Virus record (IMG/VR): IMGVR_UViG_2740892426_000003
DNA: 34,274 nucleotides
Reading direction: 5' to 3' (one strand)
DNA from: a virus
Lineage: Duplodnaviria; Heunggongvirae; Uroviricota; Caudoviricetes
Each line of letters starts with the position of its first letter. Positions within the stretch are counted from its first letter, which is position 1. Both the position numbers and the translations under genes were made by a program. Under the pieces are notes generated by a model. The model did not search any database. It was not told where the DNA came from and was given only the letters and a program-made list of their open reading frames with translations. Below are positions 1,829 through 29,441 of the stretch, one piece after another.

Positions 1829-4483
1829 TTATCGTTGAAAAACCCAACACTTCACTGTCGCCGGGCGGCGCGATGCGGCTGGGTAACGGCGGTTAAATTC
1901 AGCGTTGATGCCGCTGTTAACCGTTCTGACTTCAATAAACTTGTGGGTACGGCTGGTTTTCAGTACCCGCTTTAAATCGCTGACTGGTGGGATCTGCTGG
2001 CGACGTTCGGTGGCCAGTTGAATAAAGTGGTTAAGGTTGACGGCGATAAGCTGTTCATCGCGCGAGTGGTTAAGCTGCGGTTCGTCGTCGCCATCGAGGA
2101 AGTCGAAAATATCCCAGAACTCCTGTACCAGAGGATGGTCGGCGCTGATAGCCTGCTGGCGTTCCAGACTGAGCTGGATAAACATTTCTCTGGTGGCCTG
2201 TAGCTGTTCCTCCGTGACCGGAATAACCAGCGCCAGCGCGTCGAGCAGCGCCATAAGCTGGGCGTGGTTTTTAATGATGCGGATATGGCGAATATCGGGG
2301 TGGGCGTGAAGCTGCTGCTCGTATAGCGGGATCTGCCGGTTGACGCACTCCAGCACGGCCTGTTCCGCCAGCGCTGCCTTCAGCATAAAGCCGGAAAGCA
2401 GCTCCACCGGCAGGCGTTCGAGCTGCTCGGCAGCGACCTTGGTCTGAGTATTCTGGCCGCTGCGGTCGGTGTACAGGTGAATAATACGTTCCAGCACCGG
2501 GTTAGAGGCGCTGACGTCGGCGTTTTGCGCAATTACAATCGCGCCCCGGAACGGCGGTTCATAGGTCTCGTTACCGCTGTTACGCAGACCGCGAGAACGT
2601 ACCGACCGCCCGTTGTAGGCGGTTTTCAGCTCTTCCCAATCAAAGCCGCGCTGTTTTGCACCCTCCTGATTACGGTCACCCTCGATCAGCACTACCGGCA
2701 TATTCGCCACCTGCGCAAAGTTGCGCGCGCGGGCGGCCAGCGTTGATTTAGACGGATCGAAACCTTCATAGTCGCGTCGACCCAACAGTTTCCAGAGGAA
2801 CTCTATCAGCGTGGTTTTACCGCTGCCGGGTTCGCCGACGATTTCCAGAAACGGAAAGCTCTTGTGCTTGTCGCGGATCTGTTCTGCAAACATCGTCCCA
2901 AACCAGAACGCCAGCGCCACAAAGCCCTTTGCGCCAAACGCCTGCCAGAGTAACTGGGGCCACTGGCTGTCCATCTGTTTTAAATTGTCGTTCAGCGTCA
3001 GGCTGACCGACTGGTTCAGGCTTTTAAGGCTGAGTTTGCCCATGTCGAAGAAGTCTTCTTCGTTGAGCGCGTACAGCCGACCATCGCGAACGGCCAGATC
3101 GTTGAACACGTAAGCGCGGTATTCTTTGCTATAGCCGATAAAATCGGTGGTCTGGACGGTTTTGATTTTGGGAAGTTGCTTGAGCAGCAGCTTATCTAAC
3201 TGCTGACTAGTGCCAGTAAAGATGCCGCCCTGTGCGATATGCAGCAGGCGCTTTTTGAATTCTGAGCCGCTGGAAAGTTGGGAGCCGGTGAAGGTGTTTT
3301 TTATCGGCGGCGTGTCGTCCGGGAAGTTAATGCGAAAGTAATACCAGCTTTCGTCGGTGATGGTGTTGGCCTGATAGTAGAGGGCGGTCGGGTAGCAGTT
3401 GGCGATCTCCACCACGGCGGACGACTCTTTCAGCGCCTTCTGTTTCAGCTCTTCTTCGCTCAGGTCGTCATTGGAGAATGAGATACTTTCATGCACCCGC
3501 ATATAGCGGTCAATATCCAGCTTGAACCAGAACAGGCGGCTGTCAAACTCGAAGTGGAACTCTTTACGCTCTGTCTGTTCGTGCATCAGCAGGGCTTTGG
3601 CGGCGGGAGAGGTGGCGATCAGCAGAGAGCCGTAGTAGCGGTATTTCTTCACTAGCTCTGGGTTAAGCCGGTCGCGTTGGTGCAAATCGTTCCAGTCCAG
3701 CTTGCTGCGGGAATGCGGCGTCTGTGCGGCGGCTGCGCTCCAGCCTTCGTCCCGGCTGCGCTTTACCCATCGCCGGGTATAGCTCATGCCCGCCTTGTCG
3801 TTATCCAGCGCCCATACCAGTAAAGGGCGCTTTTTATCCACGAACAGCGCGGCCAGTTGGTTTAACGCCTGCGCCGGATAGTTGTTGCAGGTCATCAGGG
3901 AAACGGCGGCGATGCCGTGGTGGTGCAGGGCGATAGCGTCAAAAATGCCCTCAACCAGCCAGATCTCCTGCTGCCCTTCCAGCTTCAGCGTTGGCAATTG
4001 CCACCATAGCCCGCTGTAAGCGCCGTGAAAATTGGCTTTGCGATCGCCGAAACGCTGCGGGCGGTCAACGATCCGCTCCCACCACACGCCGTCAGCCAGC
4101 GGGAAACGCACGGTGGCCGAGCCGATATCGCGCCGTGCGTCGTAGTAGTTCTCTTGAGCGTAACAGTCACGGATCAGCGAAAGATCAAAGCCGCGCATCT
4201 CGCGCAGGTAGGCATCGGCGGCGGCCTGTGGGTTTTCCGGGGTTGGGGGATATCTGTCTGACCAGCTTTCAAACAGTTCCGGGTACACCTCTTTGATATG
4301 GATTTCGGCATTGCATTTATTCAGACGACCGCAGCGCAGTACCCACGGGCTGATGGCGTTGGTGTATAGCTCCTTTTTCTGGCAGTCCGGGCAGACGCCC
4401 TGCCGCAGCCAGTCGCCCTGTTCTTTAAAGGAAAAGTCGGCCAGCAGTCGCCGCGTAATTTCCTGATGAAGTTGTGGTTGCAT
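1829..4483 (-). CDS. P4 alpha-like DNA primase-helicase (zinc-binding primase N-terminus, Toprim, D5/SF3-like NTPase)
   Basis: 884-aa ORF; N-terminal Cys cluster (CPDC...C..C), Toprim-like LVEGIFDAIALHHHG, Walker A GEPGSGKTT and Walker B-like VVLIEGD. Architecture as in satellite P4 alpha and PICI pri-rep proteins. Confidence 0.85.
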   Translation of the reverse strand: MQPQLHQEITRRLLADFSFKEQGDWLRQGVCPDCQKKELYTNAISPWVLRCGRLNKCNAEIHIKEVYPELFESWSDRYPPTPENPQAAADAYLREMRGFDLSLIRDCYAQENYYDARRDIGSATVRFPLADGVWWERIVDRPQRFGDRKANFHGAYSGLWWQLPTLKLEGQQEIWLVEGIFDAIALHHHGIAAVSLMTCNNYPAQALNQLAALFVDKKRPLLVWALDNDKAGMSYTRRWVKRSRDEGWSAAAAQTPHSRSKLDWNDLHQRDRLNPELVKKYRYYGSLLIATSPAAKALLMHEQTERKEFHFEFDSRLFWFKLDIDRYMRVHESISFSNDDLSEEELKQKALKESSAVVEIANCYPTALYYQANTITDESWYYFRINFPDDTPPIKNTFTGSQLSSGSEFKKRLLHIAQGGIFTGTSQQLDKLLLKQLPKIKTVQTTDFIGYSKEYRAYVFNDLAVRDGRLYALNEEDFFDMGKLSLKSLNQSVSLTLNDNLKQMDSQWPQLLWQAFGAKGFVALAFWFGTMFAEQIRDKHKSFPFLEIVGEPGSGKTTLIEFLWKLLGRRDYEGFDPSKSTLAARARNFAQVANMPVVLIEGDRNQEGAKQRGFDWEELKTAYNGRSVRSRGLRNSGNETYEPPFRGAIVIAQNADVSASNPVLERIIHLYTDRSGQNTQTKVAAEQLERLPVELLSGFMLKAALAEQAVLECVNRQIPLYEQQLHAHPDIRHIRIIKNHAQLMALLDALALVIPVTEEQLQATREMFIQLSLERQQAISADHPLVQEFWDIFDFLDGDDEPQLNHSRDEQLIAVNLNHFIQLATERRQQIPPVSDLKRVLKTSRTHKFIEVRTVNSGINAEFNRRYPAASRRPATVKCWVFQR

Positions 4484-4571
4484 TGCCAGTACCTTTATTC
4501 AGGTAATACTTACCCGTCGCACAGACACGTTGTTTATGCGTTGTGGTTGTGAGTCTTTTATTTACTGAGTG

Positions 4572-5125: not shown

Positions 5126-5461
5126 ATGAAAGAATTTGGCATCCGTTTGAAGGAAGAACGTATCCGACTTGGACTTGATCAAGACGGCTTTGGACAACTT
5201 GGGGGCGTGAAGAAAAACGCACAAAGCAACTATGAGAATGGGTTGCGCAAGCCGGACAGTGACTATCTTGCTGGCATAGCGGCAGCGGGAGTTGATGTTC
5301 TGTATGTTCTAACAGGCAACCGCACGCCTGTGGTTACGTTGTCCAGTAAAGAGAGTGTGTTGGTGGAAAACTATCGTTCTGCTACGCCAGAACACCAGTC
5401 CACCCTTGACACGGTTAGCGCTGCGCTTGCGCAACCGATGAATTGTCGAAAAGTACAATGA
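5126..5461 (+). CDS. XRE-family helix-turn-helix transcriptional regulator (possible prophage repressor)
   Basis: 111-aa ORF; N-terminal GIRLKEERIRLGLDQDGFGQLGGVKKNAQSNYENGLRKPDSDYLAGIAAAGVDVLYVLTG is a Cro/C1-type HTH. First gene of a three-gene plus-strand operon. Confidence 0.75.
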   Translation: MKEFGIRLKEERIRLGLDQDGFGQLGGVKKNAQSNYENGLRKPDSDYLAGIAAAGVDVLYVLTGNRTPVVTLSSKESVLVENYRSATPEHQSTLDTVSAALAQPMNCRKVQ

Positions 5462-5491
5462 TTTATTAAATTCAGCTTATTAGGAGTAATT

Positions 5492-6580
5492 ATGGCAAAT
5501 GTCGGCTTTTCTTTTGAGGGGGTGATGATTGAAAGAATTATTGCTCATCGAATCTTCCCAAGGTCTCCCGATAAGCAAATGGTTCCACCTAAGTTAAGTA
5601 ATCAGTTAATAACGTTAGAACAAGATGCTTTGGATGCACTACAGGTTCGTATAACAGAAGCCTTAGGTAATAAATCTCATGGCATTGAAATGTCTATCAC
5701 TGATACCGGTGATGATAGTTTTTTTGCACTGACAACGTCTGTACTACATGTTGAAGGCGAATCATTTATTAACGTATCTAAGCGATTGGCGCATAAGTTA
5801 ACAGAAGCTCAATATAGTGCGGGGAAGGTTTCCGGTGGTGTGTTAGTAATCATTACGGGAAAAATTGGTGAACAAGCCTGCCCATTCTTTGCTGTACTGC
5901 GTGCTGAAATGCAAAACGGATTTCGGACCAATGATACCCCAGAGAAAATAGCGATGGAGTATATTGCTGACTTATTACTTACACCAACTCAGCGGCTTTA
6001 TAAAATAGGAGTGTTGATTGAGTGTGAGTCAGGCCATGAATTGATTGATGGTCGTTGTGATACGCAATATTATCGTTCATTTTTATTTGATCACTTGATG
6101 ACATCGACGGAAACTAAAAATGCTGCGGGGTATTTTTACAGTGTTTTTCTTGGAATGGGGATCGAAAAATCCTCCAAGAAATTGACGCAGGATTTTTTTG
6201 AACATACTCGAAATTTCATTAATCAGGCTCCAGTTGATGAGGAAACTAAGTTTGATTTACACGAGTCATTACGTTCTGAACTGAGAAGTCAGAAAGCAAC
6301 TTTGAGTACCGCTTCGTTTGCTACGGAACATCTTCCTCAAGAATTACAGACGAGCTATCAGTCATTTATGGCTCAAAAAGGTTTTCCGCAGAATGCAGTG
6401 TCTAAAGATACTGATTATATTAAGAAAAAGCTTCGTCGTAGAAGTAAATTAGTGTTTACAAGCGATGTATGGATATCCATACCACCAGATCAAGTAAAAG
6501 AACTGGTACAGATTGAACAAACAGATGATGATGAGTCAACTACACTTAAAGTCAAAGGGCGGTTGAAAAGTCAAGAATGA
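5492..6580 (+). CDS. NA37/YejK (NdpA)-like nucleoid-associated-protein-family protein; candidate DNA-binding sensor or antitoxin component
   Basis: 362-aa ORF with RBS TAGGAG upstream. By-eye similarity to E. coli YejK recalled from memory: I..H.I near the N-terminus, a GG-hydrophobic stretch (SGGVLVIITG), FLGMG...DFF, and C-terminal F..KG...TL.VKG. Very AT-rich relative to flanking phage genes. Stop overlaps the next start (ATGA). Confidence 0.55.
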   Translation: MANVGFSFEGVMIERIIAHRIFPRSPDKQMVPPKLSNQLITLEQDALDALQVRITEALGNKSHGIEMSITDTGDDSFFALTTSVLHVEGESFINVSKRLAHKLTEAQYSAGKVSGGVLVIITGKIGEQACPFFAVLRAEMQNGFRTNDTPEKIAMEYIADLLLTPTQRLYKIGVLIECESGHELIDGRCDTQYYRSFLFDHLMTSTETKNAAGYFYSVFLGMGIEKSSKKLTQDFFEHTRNFINQAPVDEETKFDLHESLRSELRSQKATLSTASFATEHLPQELQTSYQSFMAQKGFPQNAVSKDTDYIKKKLRRRSKLVFTSDVWISIPPDQVKELVQIEQTDDDESTTLKVKGRLKSQE

Positions 6581-7578
6581 TGAGTATAGAGGATTTTAGA
6601 CGTTATCTGGTTGAAAACCATGCTGCTTATGAAGCATGGGGTAAACATATTGCGTCTGAAATCAATGCGGCTTTGATTGAACAACTTGGTGAAGGGGCCG
6701 CCCAGCTCTTCATCAAGGTACCACCCACTCCGAGAGTTAAAGGTATCGAGTCCGCATTAGGGAAGGTTGGTCGTAAAGGTTATAACAACCCTGTTCAGCA
6801 GATGACGGATCTCGTTGGCGTTCGTTTTGTCGTTTTACTTTCTGAAGATATTGAGACAATCTGTAAAATCATTCAGAATAATGAACAATGGATAGCTGTT
6901 GTTTCTAAAGATTATCAGGATGAAATAGAGGTAAACCCTAAACTATTTGATTATCAATCAAAGCATTTTGAAATAAGGCCAAAGATAAATAGCGTTATAT
7001 CGGGAGTTAATATTACAACTGATATGTGCTGTGAAGTACAAATTAGAACATTATTGCAGCATGCGTATGCAGAATTAGTTCATGATAGCGTTTATAAACC
7101 TGTTGGCCCCGTACCGAAAAAAGCGGAGCGCCAAATTGCGCGTAGTATGGCTTTGATGGAAACAACAGATGAATTATTTTGTAATACAATGCGGCTTTTA
7201 TGTGATACTAATAAACCAAGAAATGATTTTTTAAAGGAGTTAAAAGATTTTTATATAAATAAAATTGGGAGGCAGTATTTAAATCAGGAAGATAAAATAA
7301 ATTATTGTTTTTTAGATGAGTATAGGTCGTTTATACAAGAAGATCTTTTGACTAATCTAATCGACCTTCTTGATAAGAAAAAATATATATCATATAAAAT
7401 CCAACAAAGGGCTACTGCCAATCTTTTTTTTGCGCAGCCAGTGGTCATTTTTACTTACTGGCTGGCAATAAATGAAGACAGTAATAAATTACAGCAAGAA
7501 TGGCCGTTACCTGGATATTTGAACGAATTGAGAATGATTTTAAGTGATGTTGGTGTAAGTAGCGGTATTGGATATTAA
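6577..7578 (+). CDS. RelA/SpoT-homologue nucleotidyltransferase (small-alarmone-synthetase/toxSAS-like) with ~150-aa C-terminal extension
   Basis: 333-aa ORF. Synthetase-domain motifs are visible: PRVKGIESALGKVGRKG, TDLVGVRFVV, and CEVQIRTLLQHAYAE (the E-[IV]-Q-I-R-T...H...AE signature). C-terminal third is K/N-rich, AT-rich and unassigned. Translationally coupled to the upstream gene. Confidence 0.8.
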   Translation: MMSIEDFRRYLVENHAAYEAWGKHIASEINAALIEQLGEGAAQLFIKVPPTPRVKGIESALGKVGRKGYNNPVQQMTDLVGVRFVVLLSEDIETICKIIQNNEQWIAVVSKDYQDEIEVNPKLFDYQSKHFEIRPKINSVISGVNITTDMCCEVQIRTLLQHAYAELVHDSVYKPVGPVPKKAERQIARSMALMETTDELFCNTMRLLCDTNKPRNDFLKELKDFYINKIGRQYLNQEDKINYCFLDEYRSFIQEDLLTNLIDLLDKKKYISYKIQQRATANLFFAQPVVIFTYWLAINEDSNKLQQEWPLPGYLNELRMILSDVGVSSGIGY

Positions 7579-14169: not shown

Positions 14170-14192
14170 CTTGTAACCACTGGCACTACAAG
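14170..14192 (-). promoter_or_regulatory. late-promoter activator site (CTTGTA-N11-TACAAG dyad) upstream of FI
   Basis: Dyad centred about 80 bp upstream of the FI start, just downstream of dam. Confidence 0.6.
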
Positions 14193-14204: not shown

Positions 14205-14963
14205 TTAATTCAGGATAATCAATTCTGATGTGGTGCTGGCTGGCTTTCCACCTACAGTATAGCGAATCCCTACCGTTGAAAATGTCAGGCCGTGGAAGAT
14301 ATCGCGCATTTCCGGGATGTCATTAACCGAGATAATCATCCGGCCCTGCATGGTGCGCGCCAGCTCTGCCATACGCTGGTACTGCTCAAGGCCAAATGGT
14401 ACGCCGTAGCCTTCGGTTTTCCAGTATGGCGGGTCGCAGTAGAACAGGGTATGCGGGCGGTCATAGCGGCGAATACAGTCGACCCAGTCCAGATTTTCAA
14501 TACAGACGCGCGCCAGCCGCAGATGGGCGGCGGATAAATCCTCTTCCATACGCAGCAGGTTCAGGCGCGGCGGTGAGGTGGTGGCGGTACCGAACGTGCG
14601 GCTTTCCACCTTACCGCCGAATGCCAGCTTTTGCAGATAGTAGAAGCGCGCCGCGCGCTGGATGTCGGTCAGCGTTTCTTCCGGGGTGATCTGGAGCCAG
14701 CGGTACATTTCGCGACTGACCAGCGACCATTTAAACTGGCGGACAAACTCTTCTAAATGGTGCTGGAGTACGCGGTAGAGGTTGGTAACGTCACCATTGA
14801 TATCGTTCAGCACCTCGGCCTGAGCGGGCTGTTTCATAAAGAACAACGCCGCCGCCCCGCAGAACGGTTCAACGTAGCAGCGGTGTTTGGGAAACAGCGG
14901 CAGAATGTGTTTTGCCAGCCTGCGCTTACCGCCGATCCACGGAATAATGGGTAACGTATTCAT
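14205..14963 (-). CDS. dam: Dam-family N6-adenine DNA methyltransferase (orphan, inside the late tail-fibre operon)
   Basis: 252-aa ORF with SAM-binding FCGAAALF and catalytic DPPY (YCDPPYW). Sits between G and FI, the position of Z/fun in P2. Confidence 0.85.
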   Translation of the reverse strand: MNTLPIIPWIGGKRRLAKHILPLFPKHRCYVEPFCGAAALFFMKQPAQAEVLNDINGDVTNLYRVLQHHLEEFVRQFKWSLVSREMYRWLQITPEETLTDIQRAARFYYLQKLAFGGKVESRTFGTATTSPPRLNLLRMEEDLSAAHLRLARVCIENLDWVDCIRRYDRPHTLFYCDPPYWKTEGYGVPFGLEQYQRMAELARTMQGRMIISVNDIPEMRDIFHGLTFSTVGIRYTVGGKPASTTSELIILN

Positions 14964-15427
14964 ATTGTCAATTTTCCAGATCGACTGCAGACCAGCGCAT
15001 ACAGCAGATTAGGTGAATAACGCCAGCTATCACGCAGATGCAGAAATTCGGCGCAGAACTCGCTGCAAAACAGGCGCTCCTGCTTGCCCTGACTGAGTAA
15101 CACAAAACCAATGGCACCCAGCCAGTCGTAACCTTTATCGTCGTGCTGACGAAAAAAGGTCTCCAGTGTCAGCGGATCGGCGTTGATCGGGAGTAAATCC
15201 CATTTCTCAATCGGCAGCGGCATTCTCTTGCTGCGCACGCCTTTATCCCGTACCGATGATGAGTAACAGATAAACAGGCCATCCGGCAGGCGTTCGACCA
15301 GTTCACAGTGAGAGTAAGGGCCGCGCGTGACCTGTCGCGTCAACCAGTCGGAGAGCCGTGCAAGGCTGAAAAAGCGTTCAGCCCGGCCACGGTAGAACGC
15401 CGCGTAAACCTGACTCATGGTTGCCAC
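14960..15427 (-). CDS. hypothetical 155-aa protein with conserved His/Cys motifs (possible permuted papain-like hydrolase), cargo at the G-FI locus
   Basis: Overlaps the G stop and dam start, so co-transcribed with the tail-fibre operon. YSHCELV and LFCSEFCAEF motifs; no firm family assignment. Confidence 0.6.
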   Translation of the reverse strand: MATMSQVYAAFYRGRAERFFSLARLSDWLTRQVTRGPYSHCELVERLPDGLFICYSSSVRDKGVRSKRMPLPIEKWDLLPINADPLTLETFFRQHDDKGYDWLGAIGFVLLSQGKQERLFCSEFCAEFLHLRDSWRYSPNLLYALVCSRSGKLTI

Positions 15428-20507: not shown

Positions 20508-20530
20508 CTTGTAGGATAATGGGCTACAAG
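20508..20530 (-). promoter_or_regulatory. late-promoter activator site (CTTGTA-N11-TACAAG dyad) upstream of V
   Basis: Perfect hexamer inverted repeat with 11-bp spacer; same element found upstream of FI, X and in the O/P divergent region. Confidence 0.6.
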
Positions 20531-20569: not shown

Positions 20570-20905
20570 TTAACCGTGCGCAGCCTTCATCAGTGTATCG
20601 TTAATCCACTGGTTAACGCTTTTACCGGAGACTTCTGCCGCAACGTTAATGGCAGAGTGAATTTCAGGTGGAATACGCAGGCTGATTTTTCCGCTGGCCG
20701 GACGCAACGGCTCCCGGCCCCGTTCCTCGCAGTAAGCCAGATAGTCGTCTACCGCCTCTTCAAACGCTTTACGCAGATCGGCAACATTATCGGCATGAAA
20801 GCCAATGACATCCCGAATGCCTGCAACGTGACCAACAATGCATTGATCTTCATCGCTGTATTCAATTTTTGCGGCATAGCCTCTATATGTCATGGTATTC
20901 ATCAT
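20570..20905 (-). CDS. hicB: HicB-family antitoxin (RNase-H-like N-domain + C-terminal RHH)
   Basis: 111-aa ORF; YRGYAAKIEYSDEDQCIVGHVAGI...DLRKAFEEAVDDYLAYCEERGREPLRP is a HicB pattern; C-terminal ISLRIPPEIHSAINVAA is RHH-like. Confidence 0.8.
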   Translation of the reverse strand: MMNTMTYRGYAAKIEYSDEDQCIVGHVAGIRDVIGFHADNVADLRKAFEEAVDDYLAYCEERGREPLRPASGKISLRIPPEIHSAINVAAEVSGKSVNQWINDTLMKAAHG

Positions 20906-24218: not shown

Positions 24219-24241
24219 CTTGTAACTGAGGGCAGTACAAG
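24219..24241 (-). promoter_or_regulatory. late-promoter activator site (CTTGTA-N11-TACAAG dyad, extended to a 13-bp inverted repeat) upstream of X
   Basis: GCTTCCGCTTGTA...TACAAGCGGAAGC, centred about 84 bp upstream of the X start. Confidence 0.6.
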
Positions 24242-25089: not shown

Positions 25090-25190
25090 TTACGGAGATA
25101 TCAAGCAGCGCTAAGAAGTTAGGATTATTTGTTCAGCCCAGATTAGTCGATATGCACTGATTAACTTAAACATTGTGTGTAGGAGGTGTT

Positions 25191-25844
25191 GTGGATATTG
25201 AATTTTTTCTTAAAGAGCGCACAAGATTCGTTACTTATTTCTATGAAACGGCTGCTGCACCATTTGTTAACATCATGAATGATATTGAGAATGAAGTGGA
25301 ACCTTATATTCAGCCGTATGGTGAGAGTGATGAACCAGCTTTTTTAGATGAATGGTTAGATGCAAAGTCGGGATTAGAAACCTGTGGGCACCATGCATTA
25401 TCGATGCTTTCGTCTTCTCTTCAGTTGTACCTGAAGGCGTGGGTAGATCGCTTAGGATATCATAGCGTGAAATCTGATATAAATTTCAAGAAGGGTTGGT
25501 TTAATGGCTATCGTGAAATTTTCAACAAAATTGAGTTGGAAATGGCAAAATGTCCTGCAAATTTGGAAATAATTGAACAAATTCCCTTGGTGAGAAATCG
25601 TGTCCAGCATCCTGAGGAACTTACCTCAATTAATATTTCTCACTCAAAAAATGACTTGGAAAAATATCCTCGCCCATACTTTATTCAGGAGTGTGAGCTA
25701 CTTTTGGCTTCCGAACAGGAAGAAAAATCGTGGTTATTCCCACCTACAATATCCCCGACTAAAGAGAAAATATTCGAAGCTATCAGAAATGTTGAAATGC
25801 TGTGCTCTTGGTTAGAGTCTGAGTATTGGTCGGCTCTTGACTAA
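25191..25844 (+). CDS. hypothetical 217-aa protein, AT-rich orphan cargo (candidate effector or toxin partner of the upstream RHH)
   Basis: Start set at GTG 4 nt after a consensus AGGAGG (ORF track begins at TTG 25173). Markedly AT-rich versus the flanking head and lysis genes; no motif recognised. Confidence 0.65.
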   Translation: MDIEFFLKERTRFVTYFYETAAAPFVNIMNDIENEVEPYIQPYGESDEPAFLDEWLDAKSGLETCGHHALSMLSSSLQLYLKAWVDRLGYHSVKSDINFKKGWFNGYREIFNKIELEMAKCPANLEIIEQIPLVRNRVQHPEELTSINISHSKNDLEKYPRPYFIQECELLLASEQEEKSWLFPPTISPTKEKIFEAIRNVEMLCSWLESEYWSALD

Positions 25845-29418: not shown

Positions 29419-29441
29419 CTTGTAATCATCCGGGTTACAAG
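29419..29441. promoter_or_regulatory. late-promoter activator site (CTTGTA-N11-TACAAG dyad) in the O/P divergent region
   Basis: Same dyad as upstream of FI, V and X, centred 72-84 bp from the O and P starts. Confidence 0.55.

Follow-up and report, generated by a model that had tools for sequence, protein, structure and literature searches.

The gene for a small Cys/His protein, here referred to as the small enzyme, occupies a near-constant place directly behind tail-fibre assembly chaperone genes, and this is the chief new result of our analysis of IMG/VR virus record IMGVR_UViG_2740892426_000003, a stretch of 34,274 nucleotides from a virus of the Caudoviricetes (Duplodnaviria; Heunggongvirae; Uroviricota) that is called the window throughout. 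Positions 14,205 to 15,427 hold the genes for the small enzyme and for an orphan N6-adenine DNA methyltransferase (the methylase). Both genes are real, lie on the minus strand and are under purifying selection, with ratios of non-synonymous to synonymous substitution rates (dN/dS) of 0.09–0.19 for the small enzyme and 0.04–0.07 for the methylase. The best explanation that we can offer, to which we give an even chance of being right, is that these are two separate late genes that have been appended to the V tail operon of a P2-like prophage, one encoding an orphan methylase and the other a fibre-linked acyl-enzyme of the lipid type. We found no description in the literature of a partnership between the small enzyme and tail-fibre chaperone genes, and we rate the result as a lead of moderate interest that can readily be tested, not as a surprise.

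Genomic setting of the small enzyme gene

The small enzyme was found in 85 phage loci, which fell into 39 clusters at 85% identity. Throughout these clusters an upstream gene on the same strand abuts or overlaps the start of the small enzyme gene, and in 38 of the 39 it encodes a Mu-U-type chaperone, its stop codon in most cases overlapping the start codon of the small enzyme gene; the one cluster with an unclear upstream neighbour is that of phage pAN. For the 38 loci with an upstream open reading frame (ORF), 36 of the products form one homology network with the window chaperone, and the other two (L022 and L027) proved on inspection to be chaperone homologues as well. When the 39 upstream sequences (those of the 38 loci and the window chaperone) were compared with Pfam, DUF4376 was found in 26 and Caudo_TAP in seven, and the tail-fibre assembly families of PHROGs cover most of them. 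The window chaperone itself matches DUF4376 (4.9e-13), Caudo_TAP (1.2e-4), phrog_1807 and phrog_105 and carries the precomputed Pfam labels Caudo_TAP_N and DUF4376, the latter being the C-terminal domain of Mu U (PMC7882524). Long ORFs in L022, L025 and L027 that resembled natural fusions of chaperone and enzyme were dismissed as artefacts of upstream in-frame starts.

The 38 loci span Mu-like, P2-like, P1-like and other, unclassified phage backbones. A homologue directly follows the tail-fibre assembly gene, or takes the equivalent position, in Mu-like Haemophilus SuMu, Pasteurella Pm86, Moraxella Mcat2, Pseudomonas pAN and Acidovorax AP1, and likewise in a locus annotated STM4198 in Salmonella Infantis SARB27; the same order of chaperone and enzyme is present in a second P2-like prophage, a BcepMu-like element and a P1-like Escherichia coli element. 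Those parts of the literature naming STM4198 that were accessible concern only gene content and virulence-gene profiling. In two P1-like E. coli loci (L111 and L112) a P1-type fibre operon (genes R, S and U) ends with the small enzyme gene. Directly beyond it, genes on the opposite strand are antirepressor-like or very large and helicase/methylase-like, and gene calling placed no second set of fibre and chaperone in between. A contig from a metagenome-assembled genome labelled Bacillota (L097, JAEZCC010000043.1) carries a fibre/chaperone/enzyme block 57% identical to the enterobacterial-type proteins of the window, and is probably a mis-binned proteobacterial prophage contig. The Salmonella phages SEN4, SEN5 and Gifsy-1 (hits H80, H93 and H94) have a macro-domain protein annotated at or next to the match to the tail-fibre assembly gene, and the post-chaperone slot may be used by different small enzymes.

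The original prediction, which was made from the letters of the window alone, named as a ground for its own refutation that the small ORF is a conserved tail component in related phages. This ground holds in part: the gene is a conserved companion of the chaperone gene, in 38 of 39 loci and on several backbones, which does not in itself make its product a structural component of the tail. In nearly all temperate-phage loci the gene is translationally coupled to that of the chaperone, and its divergence matches those of the chaperone and the fibre tip across backbones (see below). Both points speak for a rival explanation, in which the small enzyme acts on the fibre or the chaperone (by acylating, de-acylating or trimming it) or rides on the virion at the fibre tip, as a third component of fibre assembly or function. 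MARTX RID, a structural relative of the small enzyme, acts on protein lysines, which would suit a role of this kind. The report that TfaMu stays bound to the fibre (PMC7882524) points the same way. However, the phage collection contains 190 records with a homologue of the window chaperone and only 25 with a homologue of the small enzyme, so the latter must be dispensable for fibre assembly generally; distant homologues occur where no chaperone gene is recognizable, both in large phage-type contigs and beside a bacterial phospholipid synthase gene; and no natural chaperone–enzyme fusion was found. The SuMu homologue, gp51, was not in the searchable files of SuMu virion proteomics, data that are too weak to count as absence and speak only faintly against the fibre-directed role. 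We place this explanation first among the rivals and consider it rather unlikely.

The distant homologues (about 32–43% identity) that lie away from recognizable fibre-chaperone genes come from a jumbo phage and large phage-type contigs. In addition, in two Cohaesibacter chromosomes (L104, positions 3153–4504, and L105, positions 3251–4468) a 33%-identical homologue directly follows a gene for a CDP-alcohol phosphatidyltransferase in a non-phage setting, the two genes overlapping in one of the two loci (L104). CDP-alcohol phosphatidyltransferase is an enzyme of phospholipid synthesis. Since homologues thus occur free of the chaperone and beside a phospholipid-synthesis gene, the activity of the small enzyme should be autonomous of the chaperone, and a lipid substrate is plausible. 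In L104 a gene for a rhodanese-domain protein lies further downstream of the small enzyme homologue.

The small enzyme also shares the history of the fibre. In elements whose baseplate proteins J and I are only 27–32% identical to those of the window, identity is 55–74% for the fibre tip, 59–64% for the chaperone and 57–65% for the small enzyme, the fibre region that is conserved at this level across backbones being the C-terminal ~220 residues. By these identities, fibre tip, chaperone and small enzyme move together between unrelated backbones. In a BcepMu-like element (L109) all four genes, i.e. those for fibre, chaperone, small enzyme and methylase, are 62–72% identical to those of the window and the baseplate about 30%. 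The simplest reading is that the fibre/chaperone/enzyme/(com)/methylase block, com being the gene for the Com regulator, is the right end of a Mu-type genome that was grafted onto a P2-type backbone at the junction of G and FI. Against a sister prophage, which also has an ATGA overlap between the small enzyme and methylase genes, the order of identities is turned round: nucleotide identity is about 90% over the methylase and sheath genes, 70–97% over the chaperone gene and 52–77% over the small enzyme gene, with an identity boundary near 15067, at the conserved Cys motif of the small enzyme; the methylases are 95% and the small enzymes 68% identical. By this pattern and its boundary, the small enzyme is part of the variable cassette for host recognition, and the methylase, in this lineage, is part of the backbone.

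Alternatively, and in line with the original prediction, both genes may be unrelated accessory cargo (morons) in a variable G/FI slot, so that the link of the small enzyme to the fibre is one of hitch-hiking and its function, for example in anti-defence, has nothing to do with adsorption. The slot behind the chaperone gene does hold other cargo (fun(Z) in P2 and the macro-domain proteins in SEN4, SEN5 and Gifsy-1), the genes downstream of the small enzyme are highly varied across loci, and overlapping genes are hard to separate by recombination. Nevertheless, the same partner and the same overlap have been kept in P2-, Mu- and P1-like and other backbones at 33–65% identity and under purifying selection, and the small enzyme gene is without the promoter and terminator typical of morons. 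We rank this explanation second among the rivals and think it, too, improbable, to a similar degree.

The particular case of P2 fun(Z) deserves separate comment. The two genes had been placed at the G–FI locus, as equivalents of Z/fun, and fun(Z) of the P2 record does occupy the corresponding place, with the chaperone gene on one side and the pF promoter on the other. The equivalence is positional only, however. In P2, fun(Z) is encoded on the other strand, beyond the terminator that closes the V operon after G, and is annotated as a lysogenic-conversion gene, whereas the window genes share the strand of the operon, overlap and have no terminator. No Fun(Z) homologue was detected either by blastp against the two proteins (no match at E ≤ 10) or by tblastn in the window (no match at E ≤ 1). 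A lysogenic-conversion moron of the fun(Z) type was thus rejected, there being neither a separate transcription unit nor Fun(Z) homology.

Family, predicted fold and active site

The small enzyme had originally been read as a 155-aa protein, which relies on a GTG start at 15427. The ORF is present, between the chaperone and methylase genes, but its homologues begin at MSQVY, the ATG at 15418 overlaps the chaperone stop codon as ATGA, and gene callers have recorded the exact 152-aa product in 113 public assembly blocks. The gene therefore most likely starts at ATG 15418 and comprises positions 14960–15418, and the longer reading was set aside. Residue numbers of the 152-aa product are three lower than those of the 155-aa reading, so that His40, Tyr100 and Cys121 become His37, Tyr97 and Cys118.

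It had also been held that the protein has no assignable family. This is true of Pfam and NCBIfam, in which it has no match at E ≤ 0.01, so that the C92 family model is unmatched as well. A single-sequence phmmer search of the PDB gave nothing at E ≤ 10, PADLOC matched neither the small enzyme nor the chaperone, and the closest viral structures in a BFVD fold search were uncharacterized proteins only. Nevertheless, the small enzyme falls in phrog_1128 (3.6e-52), and a profile built from an alignment of 29 sequences (the window protein and 28 homologues) matched two PDB entries, the Bacillus cereus ‘cysteine peptidase’ 3kw0 (4e-5) and E. coli YiiX (2if6; 0.68). An exhaustive search with the profile gathered 4,620 clusters at 50% identity (E ≤ 1e-3), and the 150 clusters listed are mostly single-domain proteins of about 135–200 aa. 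The name enoyl-CoA hydratase/carnithine racemase, which is borne by homologues and by phrog_1128, was considered and rejected: the small enzyme has no Pfam match, crotonase included, and there is no crotonase among the fold matches listed. The ‘enoyl-CoA hydratase’ name thus appears to be a propagated mis-annotation.

In the 29-sequence alignment, His40, Glu42, Ser56, Asp61, Gly63, Arg65, Cys121 and Glu123 (155-aa numbering) are invariant. The His and Cys motifs that had looked conserved in the single sequence are therefore borne out, at His37 (codon 15310–15308) and Cys118 (codon 15067–15065). Both residues fall on the catalytic residues of 3kw0 and 2if6 in the profile alignment, and Tyr97, which is conserved in at least 90% of the sequences, aligns to Tyr115 of YiiX. 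The features of YaeF/YiiX-like PPNE were tested as defined in PMC3142127, and fold comparison found in the small enzyme a papain-like core with a circular permutation that places the His N-terminal to the Cys. The AlphaFold model is confident (predicted local distance difference test, 89.5), there is no apparent transmembrane segment (maximum 19-residue hydropathy 0.68) and no signal peptide, and the isoelectric point is 8.9, the family median being 9.0. Sequence and predicted structure together identify the small enzyme as a soluble, basic, circularly permuted member of the NlpC/P60 superfamily, from its YiiX/YaeF branch. With this, a large family (about 4,600 clusters at 50% identity) that has no Pfam or NCBIfam model and is wrongly named gains a testable assignment as a permuted NlpC/P60 acyl-enzyme, with defined catalytic residues.

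The small enzyme is only 15–16% identical to YiiX (2if6) and BcPPNE (3kw0), enzymes of MEROPS C92, and is about 30–40 residues shorter. Unlike YiiX and BcPPNE, it is phage-borne and fixed beside a tail-fibre chaperone gene, a context not described in the literature on YiiX-like proteins that we examined. The permuted Cys/His core and thioester acyl-enzyme chemistry are shared by Tox-Act1 and TseH (type VI secretion system), LnsA (Staphylococcus aureus), PLAAT/LRAT and MARTX RID. Characterized members of the group work on fatty-acyl bonds: both Tox-Act1 and TseH have phospholipase activity (PMC12994826), LnsA functions in the N-acylation of lipoproteins (PMC7387801), and YiiX has been co-crystallized with a fatty acid, the S1 pocket of the permuted YiiX branch being hydrophobic and considered ill-suited to peptides (PMC3142127).

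Because the permuted NlpC/P60 lipid enzymes have this core and chemistry in common, we propose that Cys118, activated by His37, would form a thioester acyl-enzyme and would then hydrolyse or transfer a fatty-acyl group. The enzyme would do so late in infection, either in the cytoplasm of the cell or at the inner face of its membrane, and its substrate may be a lipid-linked molecule of the host, such as a phospholipid, a lipoprotein or a lipopolysaccharide precursor. The least secure step, and a guess, is that the effect might be matched to the receptor specificity of the fibre, for instance by curbing re-adsorption or superinfection.

A hydrolase of this superfamily might instead attack peptidoglycan, lipoproteins or membranes and so aid lysis or release. 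The NlpC/P60 superfamily does include many cell-wall amidases, phospholipase relatives of the small enzyme disrupt membranes, and in AP1 and pAN the gene stands just before genes annotated as those of a holin, lysozyme or lysis protein. However, the hydrophobic S1 pocket of the YiiX branch (PMC3142127) argues against action on peptides, the small enzyme lacks a signal peptide and a transmembrane segment, and in the window its gene lies between the fibre and sheath genes, not beside recognizable lysis genes, and tracks the chaperone gene. We regard a lysis helper as quite improbable and place it third among the rivals, ahead of the still less probable idea that the small enzyme is an isopeptidase that removes host ubiquitin-like or other conjugates from tail fibres in counter-defence, to which we attach very little weight.

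The explanation that we prefer, a late, fibre-linked acyl-enzyme of the lipid type, has several points against it. The third position of the triad, where the YaeF/YiiX-like enzymes have a polar residue some 15 positions beyond the His (Glu64 in BcPPNE), is Ser or Ala in the small enzyme alignment, where an acidic residue is not clearly conserved; near this position lie the invariant S56, D61 and E42 (155-aa numbering). Lipid specificity would be extrapolated from relatives that are only 15–16% identical, and the late transcription of both genes is deduced from sequence. An enzyme made only late, and in the cytoplasm, would be an awkward means of altering an outer-membrane receptor; the tight coupling to the chaperone gene fits a direct role on the fibre equally well; and co-transfer could reflect mere physical linkage.

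With these reservations, we put forward a more specific possibility, tentative and less probable than the general explanation. The small enzyme would be a third, enzymatic member of the host-range cassettes of many temperate phages of Proteobacteria, i.e. a YiiX-like thiol acyl-enzyme that edits either a lipid-linked surface precursor of the host or the fibre–chaperone complex in a receptor-matched manner and is hence exchanged with the fibre tip. To redirect host range, phage engineers and designers of tailocins exchange whole cassettes of fibre and chaperone; if the enzyme truly belongs to such a cassette, it may affect the performance of swapped fibres or the way in which a lysogen or lysing cell handles the matching receptor.

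The methylase and the late tail operon

The methylase had been called a Dam methyltransferase. It is an intact D12-class enzyme, with a PF02086 match (7.5e-29; 101.7 bits against a cut-off of 22) that covers residues 9–225 and positions 1–241 of the 253 in the model, and with matches to phrog_56 (2.1e-97) and, over its full length, to PADLOC MTase_II PDLC03253 (1.4e-114). Motif mutations that would mark an inactive enzyme were looked for and none was found: GGK (residues 11–13), EPFCGAAALF (32–41), ND (53–54) and DPPY (177–180) do not vary among 14 homologues and can be aligned to EcoDam. Since its motifs are intact, the methylase looks catalytically active.

The Dam label itself fared less well. 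The methylase shares the D12 class and the GGK, FxGxG-like, D/N and DPPY motifs with the GATC-specific E. coli Dam, T4 Dam and DpnM, but its similarity to them is weak (about 55 bits). Among the points that weigh against our explanation on the side of the methylase, it scores below the curated Dam cut-offs of both the TIGR00571 subfamily (105 against 114.85 bits) and the NF008152 equivalog (61.1 against 441). In EcoDam, R124, L122, N120 and P134 are the residues that contact GATC; in a HMMER alignment, which is uncertain in this loop, they align to E, K, G and S. The observed/expected ratio of GATC in the window, at 0.81, is uninformative on GATC specificity. From these comparisons, GATC specificity should not be assumed. 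An anti-restriction role is plausible, and the methylase would most likely modify phage DNA, both replicating and progeny, in the late stage of infection.

The methylase is of an ordinary and common phage orphan type. It is 65–73% identical to the methylases of, among others, Pseudomonas phage B3, BcepMu-like PhiKM, Klebsiella KP12, VP882 and phiE125, and is of the lineage found behind com at the right end of Mu-like phages. The relative in B3 is annotated with the Com regulator, and a com-like zinc-finger ORF lies just upstream of related methylases in SuMu and in several metagenomic or prophage loci. The Mu-like phages with Com-regulated Dam methylases (B3, SuMu-type and BcepMu-like) resemble the window in that their methylases, at 65–73% identity, are all orphans, and in the order fibre, chaperone, small enzyme and methylase. 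They differ in that com is absent from the window, where an ATGA overlap instead ties the methylase gene to that of the small enzyme and makes it part of a P2-type V operon, between the fibre and sheath genes. The methylase otherwise adds little, and is notable only for having passed from a Mu-type setting under the control of com to a late operon of the P2 type. In a megablast search of 50,697 phage records, the methylase/small-enzyme interval had no match.

Should the two proteins instead work together, they could form a two-gene DNA-modification unit, for hypermodification of the Mom type. Their genes overlap as ATGA both in the window and in the sister prophage, and a methylase of the same lineage follows the small enzyme in about a third of the non-redundant loci. 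However, most loci have the small enzyme without a methylase, PhiKM and KP12 have this methylase lineage without the small enzyme, and in Mu-like phages a com-like ORF and 280–350 nt separate the two genes. Because of this distribution, the separation by com and the different recombination histories (methylase 95% and small enzyme 68% identical across the boundary in the sister prophage), a functional pair is disfavoured, and of all the explanations considered here we think it the least probable.

We hold rather that the two genes belong together only as the end of one late operon. Four exact palindromes of the form TTGTA-N11-TACAAG occur in the window, at 14170–14192, 20508–20530, 24219–24241 and 29419–29441; in a scan of both strands they amount to eight matches, against 0.28 expected by chance. 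Three of the four stand where P2-type late promoters do (ahead of FI, ahead of V and in the region of the divergent head genes), and all are presumed to be binding sites of a late activator of the Ogr/Delta type. The F-operon dyad is centred 82 nt before the sheath ATG, as the annotated activator site of P2 pF is centred 83 nt before the FI ATG. The half-sites are spaced by 13 nt between TGT and ACA, and the spacing in P2 is 12 nt. The V-operon dyad, just upstream of which is a hairpin followed by a T-run, presumably marks the start of the operon that ends in the small enzyme and methylase genes.

Both genes had been said to overlap their neighbours, to lack their own promoters and to be expressed late with the tail genes. 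The overlaps, which take the form of ATGA, join the chaperone stop to the small enzyme start and the small enzyme stop to the methylase ATG; the methylase, on the other hand, ends 105 nt short of the sheath ATG, with no overlap and with an activator dyad in the gap. Between the V-operon dyad (20508) and the F-operon dyad (14192) there is no further activator dyad, promoter-like and terminator-like sites do not exceed chance, and no terminator-like site was found on the strand of the two genes. A sigma-70-like site at 14971–14944 was rejected as a methylase promoter, the methylase ATG falling inside its spacer. As the predicted last cistrons of the V (V-W-J-I-H-G) tail operon, the small enzyme and methylase genes would naturally be read as co-expressed late with it, in agreement with the original prediction.

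Other features of the window

The window corresponds to a nearly complete P2-like prophage, with an integrase (1–1200), gpD and tape-measure, tube, sheath, fibre, baseplate and head genes. The features on which the argument turns are collected in Table 1. A 421-aa reading of the sheath ORF from a GTG was rejected as over-extended; public assemblies call the 392-aa product, which starts at ATG 14099.

Table 1. Positions in the window of the late genes discussed and of the two flanking activator dyads
Feature	Position	Strand	Remarks
Late-promoter activator dyad TTGTA-N11-TACAAG, before baseplate gene V	20508–20530	–	Exact palindrome
Tail fibre, gpH-like, 627 aa	16119–18002	–	Pfam Phage_tail_fib 2.6e-61, Phage_fiber_2 9.1e-55, Collar 1.8e-9
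Tail-fibre assembly chaperone, Mu-U type, 235 aa	15415–16122	–	Caudo_TAP N-terminal part and DUF4376
Small enzyme, 152 aa, predicted permuted NlpC/P60, YiiX/YaeF-like Cys/His	14960–15418	–	14960–15427 if read from GTG
D12-class N6-adenine DNA methyltransferase, orphan, 252 aa	14205–14963	–	PF02086
Late-promoter activator dyad TTGTA-N11-TACAAG, sheath (F) operon	14170–14192	–	Within the 105-nt gap after the methylase gene
Tail sheath FI, 392 aa	12921–14099	–	Pfam Phage_sheath_1, Phage_sheath_1C, Gp18_domIII_N

Three other regions drew attention. A 223-aa ORF at 25173–25844 on the plus strand, with a G+C content of about 0.40 and no match in Pfam or PADLOC, runs opposite to the late genes that surround it. 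At 5126–7578, also on the plus strand and beside gpD, an island of low G+C content (0.32–0.44) encodes a helix-turn-helix protein of 111 aa, an NA37/YejK-like nucleoid-associated protein of 362 aa (PF04245, 9.5e-15) and a RelA/SpoT-domain protein of 333 aa (PF04607, 1.7e-18; PADLOC candidate PDC-S33, 1.1e-13), and is a candidate alarmone-synthetase defence or toxin module in the cargo region of the prophage. Finally, a gene for a HicB-family antitoxin (20570–20905, minus strand; PF05534, 2.7e-18), just upstream of the strong hairpin/T-run and the V-operon dyad, is likely to be toxin–antitoxin cargo between tail operons.

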